Shown here: piece by piece, positions 20,278-44,739 of the stretch
How the letters are laid out: every line of letters starts with the position of its first letter
Position numbering within the stretch: the first letter of the stretch is position 1
Source: Nitrospinales bacterium
GTDB lineage: Bacteria; Nitrospinota; Nitrospinia; Nitrospinales; JAJDAT01
Direction: 5' to 3'
DNA: 64,000 bases
Assembly (NCBI GenBank): GCA_046757665.1
Contig: JBHHYO010000004.1
Location: 14,395-78,394 of the forward strand
Translations under genes and position numbers: made by a program
The notes under the pieces: model-generated
Databases searched by the model: none
Told to the model about the DNA's origin: nothing
Seen by the model: the letters and a program-made list of their open reading frames with translations, nothing else

Positions 20278-21081
20278 TCAGGCGCGAGCAAGGGTGAACA
20301 CGAAAACGCGGCGCGCCCCGGATTTTTTCAAAACCCTTGCCGCCTCATTGACCGTCGCCCCCGTGGTGAAAACATCATCGACCAGAAGAATATTCCGGCC
20401 CTTCAATTCTTCCGGCCGCGTTACCCGGAACGCTCCGCGCACGTTTTGCAACCGGTCGCCCTTGCTCATCCCCGCCTGCGGCTCGGTTTTTTTAATCCTC
20501 ACCAACCGGCCGGCATCCAGCGGCAAGTCGGCCGCTTTCGCAACCTCCCGGGCAATCAAATACGATTGGTCGAAACCCCGTTCCTTCATTTTGGCGACAT
20601 GCAGGGGCGCCGGCACCACCAGAAAATCCCGGCAGTTCCCCTTTTCTTCCGCGAAATATGCCTGAAGCAACGGCTCGATCTCCTCAACAATTCCAGGTTG
20701 CCTGCCATATTTGAAAAGCAGGATCAACTGCTTCAAAACCGTTTCATAGAGACCCAGCGAACGCGCCCGGTCGAAATAAGGCGCGTCCTTGCGGCAAACC
20801 GCACACTTGAATTCTTGATGAGGGAAATCGTACCCTATTTCCGCGGGCCGGCCGCAGTGATCGCAGAAGGGGCGGGTAATCCACACCAAATCCTCGCGGC
20901 ACAGACCGCATAAAAACGGGCCGCCGTCCTCGCGCTCGCCTTCGCAATAAACACATTTTTGCGGAAACAAAACATCCAGCAACTTATCCAGAATGTCGCG
21001 CAGAAATGTCTCCCGCCGGCTGTTTGTCCGCATGGCTCCCATTAGCTCAACCGTTTTCCCGGACAAGCGCCCGGAGAACAC
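20278..21081 (-). CDS. comF: ComF-family protein (phosphoribosyltransferase-like)
   Basis: N-terminal Cys pairs (CVYCEGE...CGLC; CDHCGRP...CAVC) and the C-terminal PRT motif ILLVDDVFTTGATV. The track start is a GTG; an ATG at 21042 or 21033 is also possible. Confidence 0.8.
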   Translation of the reverse strand: MFSGRLSGKTVELMGAMRTNSRRETFLRDILDKLLDVLFPQKCVYCEGEREDGGPFLCGLCREDLVWITRPFCDHCGRPAEIGYDFPHQEFKCAVCRKDAPYFDRARSLGLYETVLKQLILLFKYGRQPGIVEEIEPLLQAYFAEEKGNCRDFLVVPAPLHVAKMKERGFDQSYLIAREVAKAADLPLDAGRLVRIKKTEPQAGMSKGDRLQNVRGAFRVTRPEELKGRNILLVDDVFTTGATVNEAARVLKKSGARRVFVFTLARA

Positions 21082-30532: not shown

Positions 30533-30832
30533 TTATCCTTTCAAGGTGTCGATATGATCCACGTTGAGATCGTGCCGCGTCCGAAAGATGGTCAGGAGAA
30601 TCGCCAGCCCCACCACCACTTCCGCCGCCGCGACCGCCATGACGATCAAGGCGAAAATTTGCCCGTCAAGGGATTTCAGAAAACTCGAATAGCCGACCAG
30701 AAGAAAGTTCACCGCGTTCAACATCAATTCCAGCGACATGAACATCACCAGCGGGTTCTTGCGGATGATAAAACCGACGGCGCCGATGCAGAAAATCGCC
30801 GCGCTGATTATCAAAACAAATTCATTGCCCAT
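30533..30832 (-). CDS. nuoK: NADH-quinone oxidoreductase subunit K
   Basis: 99 aa with 3 TM helices. Placed by operon position. Confidence 0.9.
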   Translation of the reverse strand: MGNEFVLIISAAIFCIGAVGFIIRKNPLVMFMSLELMLNAVNFLLVGYSSFLKSLDGQIFALIVMAVAAAEVVVGLAILLTIFRTRHDLNVDHIDTLKG

Positions 30833-30872
30833 GACAAAATATCAGTGATTAAAAAAATGATTAAAACCTCAC

Positions 30873-31412
30873 CTATTCCCGCCGCCGTATTGGACGAAAA
30901 TGGAATTTGGCCAGGCAAACGATACCTATCGTGGCGACCAGCAACAAGACGGAGGCCAGTTCAAAGGGAATCAGGTGGCGCGAAAACAGCTCCAGCCCCA
31001 CGGCCTTGGCGTTGCCGATAACGGCGACGTTGATGGCGTCGAACATGCCTTCGACGGGCTGGGTTTTCCCCACCGTGGCGGCCATCAGCAGTTCGCCGAA
31101 CAACAGGAAGATAAACGCAAACGCCGTTGACCGTTGCAACGACGGCTCGCGGACTTCCTCCTTGCCGCCCAACAGCGCAATGATGAAAATAAAAAGAATC
31201 ATGACCGCCCCGGCGTAAACGATCATCTGCACCGCCGCGATGAATTCCGCGTGGTACAGCAGGTACAGCACGGCCAGGCAGATCATGTTGCCGATCAGGT
31301 ACAGGGCGCTGTAAATCGGCGAGGCGCACAACACCACGCCAAAGCCGGCCAGCACCGCCGTCAGCCCTACAACGAACGTCAGGGTCTGGTAGGTAATTTC
31401 CTCAATGACCAC
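30873..31412 (-). CDS. nuoJ: NADH-quinone oxidoreductase subunit J
   Basis: 179 aa hydrophobic protein with a GTG start. Placed by operon position. Confidence 0.88.
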   Translation of the reverse strand: MVIEEITYQTLTFVVGLTAVLAGFGVVLCASPIYSALYLIGNMICLAVLYLLYHAEFIAAVQMIVYAGAVMILFIFIIALLGGKEEVREPSLQRSTAFAFIFLLFGELLMAATVGKTQPVEGMFDAINVAVIGNAKAVGLELFSRHLIPFELASVLLLVATIGIVCLAKFHFRPIRRRE

Positions 31413-39962: not shown

Positions 39963-39990
39963 ATTATAAAGCCCTGCCACCGCCTGTCAA
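39963..39990 (-). promoter_or_regulatory. Consensus sigma70 promoter for nuoA-M (TTGACA-N16-TATAAT)
   Basis: On the minus strand the sequence is TTGACAggcggtggcagggcttTATAAT. The -35 is the reverse complement of 39985-39990 and the -10 is the reverse complement of 39963-39968. It lies about 90 nt upstream of the nuoA ATG. Confidence 0.6.
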
Positions 39991-40137: not shown

Positions 40138-40170
40138 AAAAAACATCTCGGGGGAAAGGCAAAACCCCCC
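40138..40170 (-). terminator. Candidate intrinsic terminator after the 442-aa gene
   Basis: On the minus strand the sequence is GGGGGGttttgcctttCCCCCgagatgTTTTTT, about 30 nt past the stop at 40203. The loop is large and the U-run is offset, so confidence is moderate to low. Confidence 0.35.
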
Positions 40171-40202: not shown

Positions 40203-41531
40203 TTATTCCCGGTGTTCCACGTGGAGGCGGTAGATAAGGCCGGTGGGGTTGTCGCCCGGCGAAACGGCGGCGGGTTTGGCGAAGTTGTTTACCTCAAAGT
40301 GAATGATGTTTTCTCCCTCTTTAAGATACTTTCTGATGTCGATGATAAACGGGTCCGGATATTCGGCGCCGCCAAACTGTTGCACAAGCCCAACATCGTT
40401 GACCGAGATGCGACAGGCGTCATCGCTACGAATAAAAAGATCCGCCCGCGGAATCGAATCCGCCTTGCCAGCCGGGATATGAAATTTTGTGCGAAACCGG
40501 TTTTGACTGCCGGTTTTCGCTTCCTCAAGCGTGACGGACTCCCGGACCCAAATCCACTGGCTTCCCTTGATCGACCGCCATCCGCCGTTCATCGAGCAGA
40601 GGGAAGCCGACCCCCAAGTATCGGTTTCACCGTCATAGCACTCCGTCTGCGTACCGCTGACCAAAACCAGAGTTTTGGTTTTGGAACTCACCGGCGCCGT
40701 AATGTCCAGCCGCGCACTTTCACTTTCCTCCCACATCGCGGCGTTCAATTGTTGCCAGTACTCATAGATGCCGTTTCTTTTGTTAATCACCACCATGCTG
40801 GGCCGGGGCATATTACGCCCCAGGTACGGACCGATATCGGCGATAATCAATCCATACGAACGGGGTCCGTCCGCATCGATGGCGATGAAAGAATGGGAAG
40901 GAATGACGCTGTAGACATGAATTTGCAGTTTGCCTTTTTTATGCGCCTGGGTATCGTTGTCCAGTTCATCCTGCAATTTCTGCAACAAGAGCAATGAAGT
41001 TCTGATCTCATTTTTGAAGGTCGGCTTGCCCCTGCCCTGGCGGGTGATGAGATCCACCACATGGGAATTGGGGTCCATCAGCAATAATCTGACATTGATA
41101 CCTTTCAGGATTTGTTCCCTGATAAGCTCGCGACTGCTGGTGGCGATGGAAAGCAAGGACGTGCCGCCGATGAATATCTCGCGTTTCACATCCTTAAAAA
41201 GAGACTCGAAGGAATACGCCCGGCCCAGTTCGGACCGATTCTTATAAATACCCTTGATGCCCAGGCGCACCGCGTCGGGATTGACGATTTCCTCAAGCGC
41301 CGCCTTGTATTCGTTGAACGAAAGTTCCCGAAGAAAAATTTCGTAAGCCAGGGAAACCACTCCGATCAGGGACATCAGGAGAGAAAATTCCCTAACCGGA
41401 AGCAACCAATGGCTGTCTGAACCGACTATCTTTTCGGCTCCGACATAAGCTACGGCGCCCAGGACAAATATGATCAATCCCAGGAATAAAATCCGTTCAC
41501 GAACCCAGGTTTTTATATTCGGCTGATTCAA
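40203..41531 (-). CDS. Orphan membrane-anchored protein (442 aa): 2 TM helices, a DUF5919-like alpha/beta module and a C-terminal beta-rich (jelly-roll-like) domain
   Basis: TTG start. TM helices are ILFLGLIIFVLGAVAYVGA and FSLLMSLIGVVSLAYEIFL. The central pattern is GIKGIYKNRSE...REIFIGGTSLLSI...GINVRLLLMDPNS. The C-terminal pattern is WIWVRESV...RFRTKFHIP...ADLFIRSDDACRISVNDVGL...IIHFEVNN. Confidence 0.7.
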   Translation of the reverse strand: MNQPNIKTWVRERILFLGLIIFVLGAVAYVGAEKIVGSDSHWLLPVREFSLLMSLIGVVSLAYEIFLRELSFNEYKAALEEIVNPDAVRLGIKGIYKNRSELGRAYSFESLFKDVKREIFIGGTSLLSIATSSRELIREQILKGINVRLLLMDPNSHVVDLITRQGRGKPTFKNEIRTSLLLLQKLQDELDNDTQAHKKGKLQIHVYSVIPSHSFIAIDADGPRSYGLIIADIGPYLGRNMPRPSMVVINKRNGIYEYWQQLNAAMWEESESARLDITAPVSSKTKTLVLVSGTQTECYDGETDTWGSASLCSMNGGWRSIKGSQWIWVRESVTLEEAKTGSQNRFRTKFHIPAGKADSIPRADLFIRSDDACRISVNDVGLVQQFGGAEYPDPFIIDIRKYLKEGENIIHFEVNNFAKPAAVSPGDNPTGLIYRLHVEHRE

Positions 41532-41611: not shown

Positions 41612-41640
41612 ATTCTACTAGAAAATCGCTTGTTTTACAA
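41612..41640 (-). promoter_or_regulatory. Candidate sigma70 promoter for the 442-aa gene (TTGTAA-N17-TAGAAT)
   Basis: On the minus strand the sequence is cTTGTAAaacaagcgattttctagTAGAAT. The -35 overlaps the small palindrome CTTGTaaaACAAG. It lies in the 146-nt gap after the 768-aa gene. Confidence 0.3.
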
Positions 41641-41677: not shown

Positions 41678-43984
41678 TCAACTCAGCCCCAGTTTTCGGC
41701 GAGTCCACCATTCCATGGACAGGAAACCGATGAACATAAAATAAACCCACCAATTATCCCACAAGGAGAGGATTTTACTGTCCGACTTCGTGCGGACTTC
41801 CGGATTGGAGAATCGCTGGTCGGCCAAATTTGTCTGCTCATCCAAAACCCGGAAAGCGCCGCCCGTCGCTTCCGCCATGGTTTTTAAGAGCAAACTATTG
41901 ATGAGGGGCTTTTCAAACTCCGCCGTTTCGCTAAAGACGCTGAACAACGCTTCTTTTTTGAGATCTTCGGCTGCCCGTTTCAACCGGGCGGAATAAAAAC
42001 CCTCTCCCGAAGGAGTAAATTCAAAATTCGCTTCACCCAACGCATTCGTCTGTAACGTATGCTTGGAGAGAGTTTTCCCATTGGAAATGGAATGAAGAAT
42101 CAAGTCGATCTTTTCGTTGGGAAGGGGATTATAATCCTCCCTCAGCATTTTAACTTTGATCAGTACCTTTTCGTTTTCCCTGTACCGTTCCTTGTCGGTT
42201 TCGATTTTAATCTGCTGAGTTTCCGGCTCGTTCGTCATCCAGGCCACCACATTGTTCCAGAAGTTTTGATAGTACCTTCCGCTACCCCCCTGCCCAACCC
42301 GCAGAAAATTCCATGCCCAGGAGGAGTCCGTCGCCAGAATTAGGGAGCGCCCGTCGCCGTTCTTGCGGACCGCCAGGACGGGATAGGCGTCGCCGTGATC
42401 TCCCGTCTTCGTATAACGAATCAAGACCTGAGCATCCTTCGCTGGCTCCAGGCCGATATTCAATCCCCTGAGTTCCGGCATGGAACTCCAGGCCTCATGA
42501 TTCAGTTCCTCGCTTTTTTCCAGACGCAGGATGGGATGGTGGGCAAACTGCTTGCCGATCCGCGGTTTGAAGGCATCGTTTAAAAACTGGCTCGTTTTAC
42601 TTCGGATCCTGACCGGAAGAATATTATCGACCCCCGTCTGGTAATACCCTCCGCCCTGGAAAGAGAGATCGCCTCCAATCATGATGAAAGCGCCGCCATG
42701 ACGCACGTATTTTTCAATATTCTCCAAATACTGCTTTTGAATAAAAGGCTTGTATCGAAAATTTTGAAAGATCACCAGGTCGAATGAACCCAGATAGTCG
42801 CTCAGCAGTAAATTGGATGGAAACGAGATAAGGCTCAGCTCCGAAACCGAGGCCTGCACATCGTCCGAAAAGCTTCTGAGAATAAAAAACGACAACAAGT
42901 CGACTTTGGGGTTATTGATGAGAACTTCCCGAAGAAACCGCGCATCCCAGGAAGGACGCCCATTCAAAAGCAGAACCCGGATGCGGTCGCGGATCACCTT
43001 GACCTGAAATTCCTTGCGATTATTGCTTTCAATGGATTCGCCGACGAACAGCGGCACGGAAAGAGTGTAAACTTTTTTGCCTGTCGTATTGGGAACAAAT
43101 TGCAGATCGGTTTTGTAGCGGCTCTGCCCCTCTTTGATCTCGATAACTTTCGACACCAGAACCTTGTCGCCCTCTTTGAGAACCAGCGGAATATTTTTAT
43201 TGCCCATGGAAGAGGCGATGAGGCTCACGGAGAGATTCACTTCCTGACGAACAAACCCAAAATCGGCTCCCTCCAGTTTTTCGATTCCCAGGTCCTTGAA
43301 ATTTTCATTACTGCCCGCCTGGAAAGTATGGATCGGCGCTTCAAAAAAGGACAGCGTATCCGCCATCTCCTCAGAGACCTCCGCCAAATCCTCCCCCAGG
43401 TCGGCGCCATCGGAAAACAGCATCACCCCCTGAAGCGCTTTTCCTTCATAATGCTTTTTTACTTCCCGCAACACCTGATTCAAATCCGTGTTTAATCCCT
43501 GAACCCGGTATCGACTCTCGATATCCGATCCGGGCACCGCAGTGATCCGATCAGACGCAAAATAAAAATCCACCTGAAAATCTTTTTTCAGGTTCTCAAA
43601 ATAATCCCGGTTTTTCTTCAGTACCCGGCGAACAATGTCGAACCGCGGCTTTTCCTCCGGAAAGGTTTTGATTGCCAGGCTTTTGCTGTCATCCAGCAAC
43701 ACGGCAATGGAATTTTTTTGAATTCGGCTTTTGTTGAATTCGAGCTCGGGTTTGAACAAAATCAGAAGAAGCAGAAGAAAACTGATAACCCGCAGACCAT
43801 AAAGGAAAGCTTTGTTCAAGGGAGACCGGATCCGCCTCAGGCTGGTCCAAAAAAACCATAAAGCCACCGGAACCACAAAAATCGCAAAAACCAAAATCCA
43901 TTCGACTTCACTTGTTCCCCACCGAACTTCCCAATTGTCGAATTCGTCGAATGGCAGACCGAGTAGATCAGCTAGAAAGTTCAC
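41678..43984 (-). CDS. BatA/VWA-like membrane protein (768 aa): N-terminal double TM, VWA-like region, GATase1-like region, C-terminal TM anchor
   Basis: The GTG start overlaps the DUF4159 stop (GTGA). N-terminal TMs: WILVFAIFVVPVALWFFW and AFLYGLRVISFLLLLLILF. MIDAS-like motif: AVLLDDSKS. Family-typical motifs: RVLLLNGRPSWDARFLREVL and GGAFIMIGGDLSFQGGGY. C-terminal anchor: WWVYFMFIGFLSMEWWTRRKLGL. Confidence 0.75.
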   Translation of the reverse strand: MNFLADLLGLPFDEFDNWEVRWGTSEVEWILVFAIFVVPVALWFFWTSLRRIRSPLNKAFLYGLRVISFLLLLLILFKPELEFNKSRIQKNSIAVLLDDSKSLAIKTFPEEKPRFDIVRRVLKKNRDYFENLKKDFQVDFYFASDRITAVPGSDIESRYRVQGLNTDLNQVLREVKKHYEGKALQGVMLFSDGADLGEDLAEVSEEMADTLSFFEAPIHTFQAGSNENFKDLGIEKLEGADFGFVRQEVNLSVSLIASSMGNKNIPLVLKEGDKVLVSKVIEIKEGQSRYKTDLQFVPNTTGKKVYTLSVPLFVGESIESNNRKEFQVKVIRDRIRVLLLNGRPSWDARFLREVLINNPKVDLLSFFILRSFSDDVQASVSELSLISFPSNLLLSDYLGSFDLVIFQNFRYKPFIQKQYLENIEKYVRHGGAFIMIGGDLSFQGGGYYQTGVDNILPVRIRSKTSQFLNDAFKPRIGKQFAHHPILRLEKSEELNHEAWSSMPELRGLNIGLEPAKDAQVLIRYTKTGDHGDAYPVLAVRKNGDGRSLILATDSSWAWNFLRVGQGGSGRYYQNFWNNVVAWMTNEPETQQIKIETDKERYRENEKVLIKVKMLREDYNPLPNEKIDLILHSISNGKTLSKHTLQTNALGEANFEFTPSGEGFYSARLKRAAEDLKKEALFSVFSETAEFEKPLINSLLLKTMAEATGGAFRVLDEQTNLADQRFSNPEVRTKSDSKILSLWDNWWVYFMFIGFLSMEWWTRRKLGLS

Positions 43985-44739
43985 GGTGAATGATATCTCC
44001 GCAACCGGTCCAATATAATGGGCAAATGCACCATATCCTTTTTATAATCCAGGGTGAGGGCATACAGCACAATGTTCACCCCCAACCGAATGCTTGACCT
44101 CCTTTGGATAAGTCCTCCGCCGATCATATCGTAATTCCAATGCCCCAGTTTGTTCCGTGCCCAAGCCCCCTCCAGGTCGTTGGTGGAGTAAAGAAGAACC
44201 GTTCGCCCCTTGAGAGTGATTCCCTCGAGAAACGGACGGGTAACCACGCGGCCGGCAACCCGGTTGACCAAATAAAAAGACCGGAAGATCGAATGATTCC
44301 TGGAAATCCTTTCCAGAGGGGTGTTGGGAAACAGTTGGGAAATCATGTGACGGACCGAATCATCAAACGCGGAATCGACTTTTCCGGAACTGTCGTCGAT
44401 CAGCAAAAACCCTCCATAGCTCAAATAATTCCTCAATATTTTCAGTTCTTCCGGAGAAAAGGGCTCGAAGGCGCTGTCGCCCGACATCAAAATAAACGGC
44501 AATTGAAACAAATGGGGGTCTTTGAGGCTTATATCCACGGCCTCCCGTTTAACTTCCACCGAGGTCCTTCTGGCCGTCTGGGCCAGCAGGCTTTCTACCG
44601 CCTCCGGCCGCGGCTTGTAATTTCCTCCCTGATATTTGAGCTGTGCGATCCGCAACTTGGAAAAATCCCCGATCCCCCAGGCTGAAGAACCGATCAGGCC
44701 GCAACACACACAAATCAAAAACAAAAATTTTTTTCGCAT
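43981..44739 (-). CDS. DUF4159-family protein (exported)
   Basis: Signal-like N-terminus MRKKFLFLICVCCGLIGSSAWG. Family-like motifs: LKYQGGNYKPRPEAVESLL, LPFILMSGDSAFEPFSPEELKILRNYLSYGGFLLIDD. Confidence 0.7.
   Translation of the reverse strand: MRKKFLFLICVCCGLIGSSAWGIGDFSKLRIAQLKYQGGNYKPRPEAVESLLAQTARRTSVEVKREAVDISLKDPHLFQLPFILMSGDSAFEPFSPEELKILRNYLSYGGFLLIDDSSGKVDSAFDDSVRHMISQLFPNTPLERISRNHSIFRSFYLVNRVAGRVVTRPFLEGITLKGRTVLLYSTNDLEGAWARNKLGHWNYDMIGGGLIQRRSSIRLGVNIVLYALTLDYKKDMVHLPIILDRLRRYHSP

Follow-up and report, generated by a model that had tools for sequence, protein, structure and literature searches.

PycTM, 2TM-SAVED Cap14 and Cam1 are transmembrane (TM)-anchored sensor-effectors of Pycsar, CBASS and type III CRISPR systems. 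TrmB is built of an anchor domain, a helix, an alpha/beta subdomain, a hinge and a beta subdomain, and the sugar lies in the cleft, held mainly by the beta lobe (PMC4158304). SAV_2148 was described as an inactive HEPN domain fused to a C-terminal domain called 'Phospholipase D nuclease' (Anantharaman et al., 2013; PMC3710099). Here, we analyzed a 442-aa membrane protein that shares traits with each of these systems. Its gene lies in a stretch of 64,000 nt, hereafter the window, from a Nitrospinales bacterium (GenBank GCA_046757665.1, contig JBHHYO010000004.1). Our results show that the gene belongs to the core genes of Nitrospinota, is specific to this lineage and has been inherited vertically. 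We tentatively favor the explanation that its product is a sensor or adaptor tethered to the membrane and devoid of enzymatic activity, because the order of its parts copies that of TrmB and because its central domain, DUF5919, sits behind different heads in other proteins, as sensor domains do. In what follows, homologous proteins that we retrieved are numbered from P0001 and the loci fetched around homologues from L001; coordinates without an L number are those of the window. The gene and the parts of its product are the following.

40203..41531, minus strand: coding sequence, 442 aa, TTG start, TAA stop (open reading frame (ORF) list and cross-species comparison).
41436..41492, minus strand: TM helix 1, residues 14-32 (peak of 2.62 in a 19-residue Kyte-Doolittle window; helical in the AlphaFold2 (AF2) model).
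41331..41387, minus strand: TM helix 2, residues 49-67 (hydrophobicity and AF2; ends in the invariant Y63-E64...R68).
40722..41282, minus strand: DUF5919, predicted alpha/beta domain of phospholipase D (PLD) fold lacking the HxKxxxxD (HKD) motif, residues ~84-270 (Pfam PF19319, Foldseek).
40680..40721, minus strand: low-confidence hinge, residues 271-284 (predicted local distance difference test score (pLDDT) <50 at 278-282; poorly conserved columns).
40206..40679, minus strand: C-terminal beta-sandwich, residues 285-442 (galactose-binding-like / GH2_N / Bac_rhamnosid_N / CBM67-like).

The best structural match was with TrmB and TrmBL2 (3qph, 2f5t, 5bpi), in which the parts come in the same order. 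Unlike TrmB, the window protein carries a hairpin of two TM helices (2TM) in place of the winged-helix DNA-binding domain, no helix-turn-helix (HTH) match was found in Pfam or NCBIfam, and its identity with TrmB/TrmBL2 is 12-14%. The sugar-contacting residues of the TrmB beta-barrel are not comparable, as the second lobe has another fold here. With the SAV2148-type HEPN proteins it shares the PF19319 match, conserved motifs and the lack of an HKD motif. The canonical head of DUF5919 proteins is however a cytoplasmic HEPN domain, or an HTH domain according to Pfam, whereas the window protein has a TM hairpin as its head and an extra C-terminal sandwich. Like PycTM, Cap14 and Cam1, it presents a small N-terminal TM module followed by a predicted cytoplasmic, non-catalytic sensor-type domain, but it differs from them by a PLD-like sensor fold in place of a cyclic mononucleotide-binding, SAVED or CARF domain, by the absence of an adjacent cyclase and by being a core syntenic gene. 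Its fold is that of the catalytic PLD enzymes (Nuc, Streptomyces PLD, ClsA, PssA), from which it differs by having no HxKxxxxD and a single lobe; the lack of a working HKD is a trait in common with FAM83. Finally, the C-terminal domain resembles GH2_N, Bac_rhamnosid_N, CBM67 and the 6kbj lectins in fold and in the pattern 'G-S-x-W-I/V-W ... R-x-D-D', but unlike these jelly rolls it is predicted to be cytoplasmic, has no glycosidase attached and stays below the Pfam cut-offs.

The 442-aa ORF is a real gene under purifying selection. An in-frame TGA lies three codons ahead of the TTG start. The codon at the equivalent position is TTG in L017, which holds a 90% identical orthologue, and GTG in L004 (73%), while more distant orthologues have an ATG at the equivalent codon or a few codons upstream. 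The start position is supported because it is kept among orthologues together with the encoded N-terminus, NIKxWVRDRIxFL, which is conserved throughout those compared; this agrees with the TTG start proposed by an earlier annotation made from the letters alone (the sequence-only reading). The public gene calls for the window protein (P0001, 390 aa) and for its closest relative (P0002, 424 aa) begin at internal Met codons and drop one or both TM helices. These starts are placed too late and hide the membrane anchor of the 442-aa protein, and the public annotation is corrected here. Compared with the L017 orthologue, the ratio of nonsynonymous to synonymous substitution rates (dN/dS) is 0.10 over the whole gene; by part, the TM hairpin has 0.09, the PLD-like domain 0.10 and the sandwich 0.075. 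The same comparison gave 0.10 and 0.11 for the neighboring genes encoding a DUF4159 protein and a GATase1-like protein, and 0.065-0.094 for nuoA-D.

The protein had been called an orphan. This label does not hold, because searching 5.8 billion proteins in clustered form yielded 275 clusters of homologues, of which those listed are full length. An exhaustive HMMER scan of 1.84 billion representatives at 50% identity recovered the complete architecture as one cluster plus fragments. With 275 clusters and yet a single 50%-identity cluster holding the complete architecture, the family is therefore phylum-restricted and well populated. All named homologues come from Nitrospinota, Nitrospinales, Nitrospinaceae, Nitrospina or Ca. 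Nitronauta, some on contigs of 2.3-3.9 Mb. Identity to the window protein is 56-75% among 95 aligned orthologues and 90% for P0002. It moves in parallel with nuoD identity (90/95, 73/88, then 58-64/75-81%, protein/nuoD). A tblastn search of plasmids and phages with the 442-aa protein returned no relatives. The lowered G+C that had been read from the sequence turned out to be a marginal dip, with 0.517 for the gene against a window mean of 0.546, 0.506 for nuoA and 0.565 for the L017 orthologue. A G+C trough of 46-50% lies mostly in the two upstream genes, and the same trough is present in L017. Recent horizontal transfer was rejected on the grounds of G+C and third-position G+C (GC3), of synteny and of the tracking of nuoD identity.

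Two segments only (residues 14-32 and 49-67) are hydrophobic enough to cross the membrane. In the AF2 model, TM2 is prolonged by a long juxtamembrane helix that ends near residue 83. Among 95 family members, the N-terminal tail holds a mean of 4.7 Lys+Arg against 1.6 in the 15-residue loop, and both termini are predicted to be cytoplasmic (N-in/C-in) because of the positive-inside rule, which bears out the topology proposed by the sequence-only reading. We infer that both soluble domains lie on the cytoplasmic side, because of the same rule and because DUF5919 is found elsewhere behind HEPN and TIR heads. Within the hairpin, G25, G57, S60, Y63, E64 and R68 are invariant in 97 sequences, and the Y-E...R at the end of TM2 is also found in distant stand-alone relatives.

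The central region matches Pfam PF19319 with 23.5 bits (E 5.5e-5), exactly at the gathering cut-off. The DUF5919-like module suspected earlier gains further support from the family, 85/97 members of which match at E<=0.1 (best 2.1e-7), and from the stand-alone relatives, with 29/37 matching, the best at 7.9e-9 and several above the cut-off. In an alignment with a canonical member of 294 bits, the HEPN_SAV2148-DUF5919 protein of Streptomyces rimosus, all the conserved motifs are present in the window protein: G..L, G-x-x-V-R-x-L..(D/N)-P-x-S, (Y/F)-D-x-x-P....D....G, P-x-(F/M)-x-L and W-x-x-S. AlphaFold2 modeling of the full-length protein from a 97-sequence alignment (pLDDT 85) predicts an alpha/beta domain at residues 92-269, and a separate model of residues 70-282 reached a pLDDT of 86.5 and a predicted template-modeling score (pTM) of 0.85. 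When this model was compared with the PDB by Foldseek, the best matches were TrmB (3qph, 2f5t) and TrmBL2 (5bqt, 5bpi), with E-values of 1.6e-6 to 3e-5, and the next were Streptomyces PLD, vaccinia F13, Nuc, Zucchini and PssA. The PLD-fold targets 7js7, 1v0v, 1byr (TM-score 0.59, target-normalized), 4h4a, 9fhk and 8yr6 were matched with a probability of 0.99-1.0. The full-length model also matches DUF1669 of the pseudo-PLD FAM83. At the level of profiles, the module reaches TrmBL2 at E 0.025 and no other solved family.

In agreement with the earlier annotation, a regular-expression search found no HxKxxxxD in the window protein; the motif is absent from all 37 stand-alone relatives and occurs in 2/97 family members, where it is incidental and non-conserved. 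The strand at this position reads H213-S-F215-I-A-I-D219, with Phe215 in the place of the Lys in 95/95 Nitrospinota rows. H213 is replaced by W, F or T in stand-alone relatives and by F or R in canonical DUF5919. The canonical DUF5919 protein itself, the HEPN_SAV2148 protein of Streptomyces rimosus (294 bits), lacks the motif as well. Because no HKD is present, a Phe occupies the Lys position and canonical DUF5919 is likewise devoid of HKD, the central domain is read as a non-catalytic PLD fold. The catalytic PLD reading was rejected on the motif test.

The beta-sandwich spans residues 285-441 in the AF2 model, with a pLDDT of about 90. Foldseek matched it to 6q2f (E 7e-7), 3w5n, 5cyy, the C-terminal carbohydrate-binding module of DipZ and many GH2 enzymes, with a probability of 0.98-1.0. 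According to NCBIfam, it has a local match to the rhamnosidase NF041573 (E 1.2e-6), while the scores for Pfam GH2_N (12.8 bits vs 28) and for NF045579 (12.6 vs 50) are below the curated cut-offs. GH2_N is reached at E<=0.1 by 21/97 orthologues, and the family profile reaches the fungal tandem lectins 6kbj at E 0.001. Support for the jelly-roll assignment at the sequence level is thus weak; the structural matches agree with the galactose-binding-like jelly roll predicted previously. Residues 285-440 recur in large secreted multidomain proteins. Nine further proteins of 255-345 aa (P0140, P0145, P0150, P0157, P0184, P0186, P0190, P0192 and P0211) form a recurring family with 2-4 N-terminal TM helices and, directly after them, a jelly roll of this type, and one of them has a weak DUF2231 match. 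These small proteins appear to be uncharacterised.

Stand-alone proteins of 255-300 aa are related to residues 14-272 and likewise carry the two TM helices. The motifs common to them are YE..IR at the end of TM2, DPD..RLGI, G-C-x-F-R-F-L, R-x-Y-D-x-V-P…D and C-P-G. Other arrangements were recovered as well: P0269 is a 2TM-DUF5919-NUDIX protein, P0241 carries DUF5919 in tandem, and a Streptantibioticus DUF5919 match is again the 2TM form. On Streptomyces rimosus pSRIMHP (L022 5221-6486), DUF5919 follows a HEPN_SAV2148 head (E 3.6e-88), and on the Acaryochloris plasmid pREC4 (L023 5353-6426) a CAP12/Pycsar-type TIR domain precedes a DUF5919-like region, beside a CofD-family gene. The heads among recovered relatives were thus HEPN, TIR and 2TM, and none carried an HTH domain like that of the XRE-family regulators with which the sequence-only reading had associated the module. 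Judging by these architectures, DUF5919 behaves like a swappable sensor or adaptor module placed behind different heads.

How such a protein might work can be proposed from these parts. DUF5919 would probably dimerize, as PLD-fold domains and TrmB do. Together with the beta-sandwich it may form a two-lobed binding module resembling the TrmB effector domain; small molecules of a sugar type or bearing a phosphate would be its most plausible ligands. From there, the signal would pass to the unusually conserved TM hairpin, the likely output, which may act on the membrane or on neighboring envelope proteins. The DUF4159/GATase1-like pair encoded upstream would provide obvious candidates for such targets.

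Several observations weigh against this proposal. The sensor role is itself argued only from the fold and from the logic of domain architectures. TM-scores to TrmB are modest (0.44-0.50), and the second lobe is a jelly roll of 155 residues where TrmB has a 7-stranded barrel. The pTM of the full-length model is 0.52, which makes the relative placement of the domains unreliable. Most relatives of the sandwich are extracytoplasmic, an uneasy fit with the cytoplasmic location. The residues H205, Y207, S212-H213-S214, D219, D232 and R243 are invariant in Nitrospinota and could form a binding site or a divergent catalytic site. Regarding the upstream genes, a gene order kept inside a single phylum is weak evidence that the genes are functionally linked, and the gene has its own promoter after a spacer of 85-557 bp, so that its co-expression with the pair is putative. 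The genes and elements around the gene are listed below.

41678..43984, minus strand: upstream partner, a 768-aa membrane protein with a GATase1-like domain (Pfam PF07090; PDB 3rht/2gk3).
43981..44739, minus strand: upstream partner, a 252-aa DUF4159 protein (Pfam PF13709, E 2e-43; PDB 4i66, E 7e-41).
41612..41640, minus strand: sigma-70-like promoter TTGTAA-17-TAGAAT (consensus scan), within the 146-bp spacer upstream of the gene.
39963..39990, minus strand: promoter of the nuo operon, TTGACA-16-TATAAT (12/12 consensus), belonging to nuo and not to the gene.
40138..40170, minus strand: weak hairpin GGGGGG...CCCCCC with a T-run, possible terminator (read from sequence).

There is an overlap of 4 bp between the DUF4159 and GATase1-like genes. 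The solved relatives of their products (4i66, 3rht and 2gk3) are structural-genomics entries only, all uncharacterised. The order DUF4159, GATase1-like (~768 aa), gene, on a single strand, was observed in the window and in 12/12 independent loci with upstream DNA; the L004 contig is cut inside the GATase1-like gene and stands outside these 12. This conserved synteny contradicts the island context and the lack of any link to neighbors put forward by the sequence-only reading. In the homologue neighborhoods that it had suggested looking at, DUF4159 co-occurs in all loci with upstream DNA. From the genomic arrangement, the functional tie to the DUF4159/GATase1-like pair has moderate, not strong, support. 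The spacer between the GATase1-like gene and the 442-aa gene measures 85-557 bp across loci, and 146 bp in the window. A promoter-like element, TTGT(G/A)A-N17-(TG)TA..AT, aligns in this spacer in 14/14 orthologous loci, so that the candidate promoter noticed in the single sequence is upheld by conservation. The terminator fared less well: the hairpin and the T-run exist, but the folding is no better than that of shuffled sequences (z 0.74), and the element is partly conserved in L017 and not in L004. No MoxR or DUF58 genes were seen near the pair in the fetched loci, and an Rfam scan of the whole window returned no family.

The DUF4159 and 768-aa genes (41678-44739) have the lowest G+C of the region (0.49-0.50), which recurs in L017. 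In two related genomes, L002 (1-3761) and L017 (1-4773), a giant protein of ~2,680 aa (PD40/Tricorn/TPR/CHAT) is encoded 2-3 genes upstream of DUF4159. Farther along the nuo operon of L017, a HicB-like antitoxin ORF lies between nuoJ and nuoK (20713-20952); in the window (30533-31412) these two genes are adjacent and there is no such ORF.

The protein could also function without sensing any ligand. In that case, it would be a purely structural subunit on the cytoplasmic side of an envelope complex with the DUF4159 and 768-aa GATase1-like proteins, and DUF5919 and the sandwich would be scaffolds for protein-protein contacts. The three genes have remained side by side despite a rearrangement, the TM hairpin is constrained as much as the soluble domains, and the pseudo-PLD scaffold FAM83 DUF1669 is among the structural matches. 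Furthermore, TrmBL2 uses its effector-type fold architecturally and not for sugar sensing. On the other hand, the gene has a separate promoter and a variable spacer, shows no coupling like the 4-bp overlap of the other two genes, and would join partners that are themselves uncharacterised. We consider this explanation doubtful, if worth keeping in mind.

The sensor or adaptor explanation can be extended to the whole DUF5919 family, in a scenario that we find unlikely as a whole. DUF5919 would be an unrecognised HKD-less, PLD-fold (TrmB-effector-like) ligand-sensor domain of prokaryotic conflict systems, with interchangeable HEPN, TIR or 2TM heads and NUDIX or jelly-roll tails. In Nitrospinota, one 2TM-DUF5919 effector would have been domesticated through its fusion with a carbohydrate-binding-like domain. 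The resulting core membrane signaling protein would gate or regulate the DUF4159/GATase1-like envelope module, or respiration, in response to a cytoplasmic metabolite.

The neighborhoods of stand-alone 2TM-DUF5919 relatives were visible for five of them only. In L015 (3462-8834), a Metallophos gene, a gene for a 717-aa ORC/Cdc6-like ATPase and one for a 344-aa CARF6-like protein (PADLOC, E 1e-27) precede P0173 on the same strand. RHS-repeat genes lie near this run, which is a candidate conflict system. In L019 (93-4452), the 2TM-DUF5919-like P0329 stands between an Eco29kI-type restriction endonuclease gene and genes for Vsr, DUF6788 and a C5-methylase. The other three contexts (L016, L020 and L021) were uninformative or metabolic. 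Among the neighbors of the stand-alone relatives, the CARF6-like gene of L015 was the sole PADLOC match; P0144 had no match in plasmids, and a metagenome scan with P0173 alone matched only its own contig.

These contexts bear on another proposal, in which the window protein would be a conflict or abortive-infection effector encoded by a single gene and fixed in the lineage. DUF5919 would sense an infection signal and the 2TM hairpin would oligomerize and depolarize the membrane, as the TM effectors of Pycsar, CBASS and type III CRISPR systems do. DUF5919 or DUF5919-like domains are indeed found behind a HEPN head of the SAV2148 type and a TIR head of the CAP12/Pycsar type, and stand-alone relatives were found beside a CARF6-like gene and inside an Eco29kI/Vsr/C5-methylase cluster. 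In addition, the gene has its own promoter, and the spacer between it and nuo takes mobile cargo elsewhere (ParD in L001, a DNA methyltransferase in L012). Nevertheless, its position and orientation relative to the DUF4159/GATase1-like genes are fixed in all loci, its identity tracks that of nuoD, and its dN/dS of about 0.10 is the same as that of the neighbors. PADLOC returned 0 families at E<=10 for the gene and, at E<=0.01, none for either the DUF4159 or the GATase1-like protein. Plasmids and phages yielded no relatives, and no signal-generating enzyme is adjacent. Among the visible stand-alone contexts, 3/5 were uninformative or metabolic, in a sample of only five. We therefore regard a defence role for the window protein as very unlikely. 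The sequence-only reading was for the most part accurate on the sequence itself, but its single-gene defence framing gives way to a stable core context in Nitrospinota, a finding that it had itself named as a refutation, with no PADLOC, plasmid or phage match. Its analogy with sensor-like conflict effectors holds for the domain family, given the HEPN and TIR heads and the 2/5 stand-alone contexts that are CARF-like or restriction-modification, and is not supported for the window gene.

A slim chance was also left to an accessory, assembly or regulatory factor of the respiratory complex I, which is encoded by the nuo operon. This operon adjoins the three-gene block in the window and in 12/12 loci with a visible flank, and nuoA-D lie directly downstream of the gene in 10 loci. 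However, a consensus promoter specific to nuo lies downstream of the gene and is perfectly conserved, with the same sequence in the window, in L017 and in L004. Moreover, the orientation relative to nuo is flipped in two genomes: in L010 and L011, nuo lies ahead of DUF4159 in divergent orientation, the block of three genes is intact, and convergent ORFs come after the gene. To our knowledge, no complex I factor with these domains has been described. The junction takes insertions as well (ParD in L001; a methyltransferase and no nuo within 2.1 kb in L012), and from these two loci it is an insertion-tolerant spot. The conserved nuo promoter and the insertions at the junction argue against co-transcription of the gene with nuo, which we rejected.

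The insertions themselves differ. In L001 (11382-11892), a ParD-antitoxin gene and a 51-aa ORF lie between the orthologue and nuoA, where the spacer of the window is empty. In L012 (5695-7512), no nuo gene was found within 2.1 kb downstream of the orthologue. An ORF ending in ...VVEIDGDSH, by eye DUF559/Vsr-like endonuclease, lies there instead, as does a 432-aa ORF, cut by the contig end, which is related to adenine-specific DNA methyltransferases (PDB 7lni/8cxz, E 1e-10).

Least probable of all is an active PLD-superfamily enzyme at the membrane, either phospholipid-modifying (cardiolipin-synthase-like) or a nuclease, with the sandwich as substrate-binding module: the PLD fold with its Foldseek matches to Streptomyces PLD, Nuc, Zucchini, F13 and PssA, the 2TM-then-PLD-type layout of ClsA-type cardiolipin synthases, the nearly invariant or invariant H205 and H213 of the Nitrospinota clade and the published name of the SAV_2148 C-terminal domain speak for it, but HxKxxxxD is absent, Phe holds the Lys position in 95/95, H213 varies in relatives and canonical DUF5919, each chain has a single PLD-like lobe, and the closest structures are the non-enzymatic TrmB/TrmBL2, with the pseudo-PLD FAM83 matching too. 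That name is given in PMC3710099.

Part of this picture was already known: the two domain families have entries in the catalogues, and the C-terminal domain of SAV_2148 had been recognized in 2013 as being of PLD nature. In a limited literature check, DUF5919 was not mentioned and DUF4159 was found only in the Pfam database paper. Within the same check, we found no description of three apparently new points: a 2TM-DUF5919-jelly-roll fusion that is a core gene specific to Nitrospinota, the structural proximity of DUF5919 to the TrmB effector domain as predicted by the models, and the set of alternative heads and tails of DUF5919.

In the ocean, nitrite is oxidised mainly by Nitrospinota. The 442-aa protein is a lineage-specific core membrane protein of this phylum, encoded beside complex I and two uncharacterised envelope genes, and its role would inform the under-studied cell envelope and physiology of Nitrospinota. 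For the family, a predicted PLD-like, non-catalytic fold together with the swapping of HEPN, TIR and 2TM heads makes DUF5919 a testable lead for a new class of sensor or adaptor domains.

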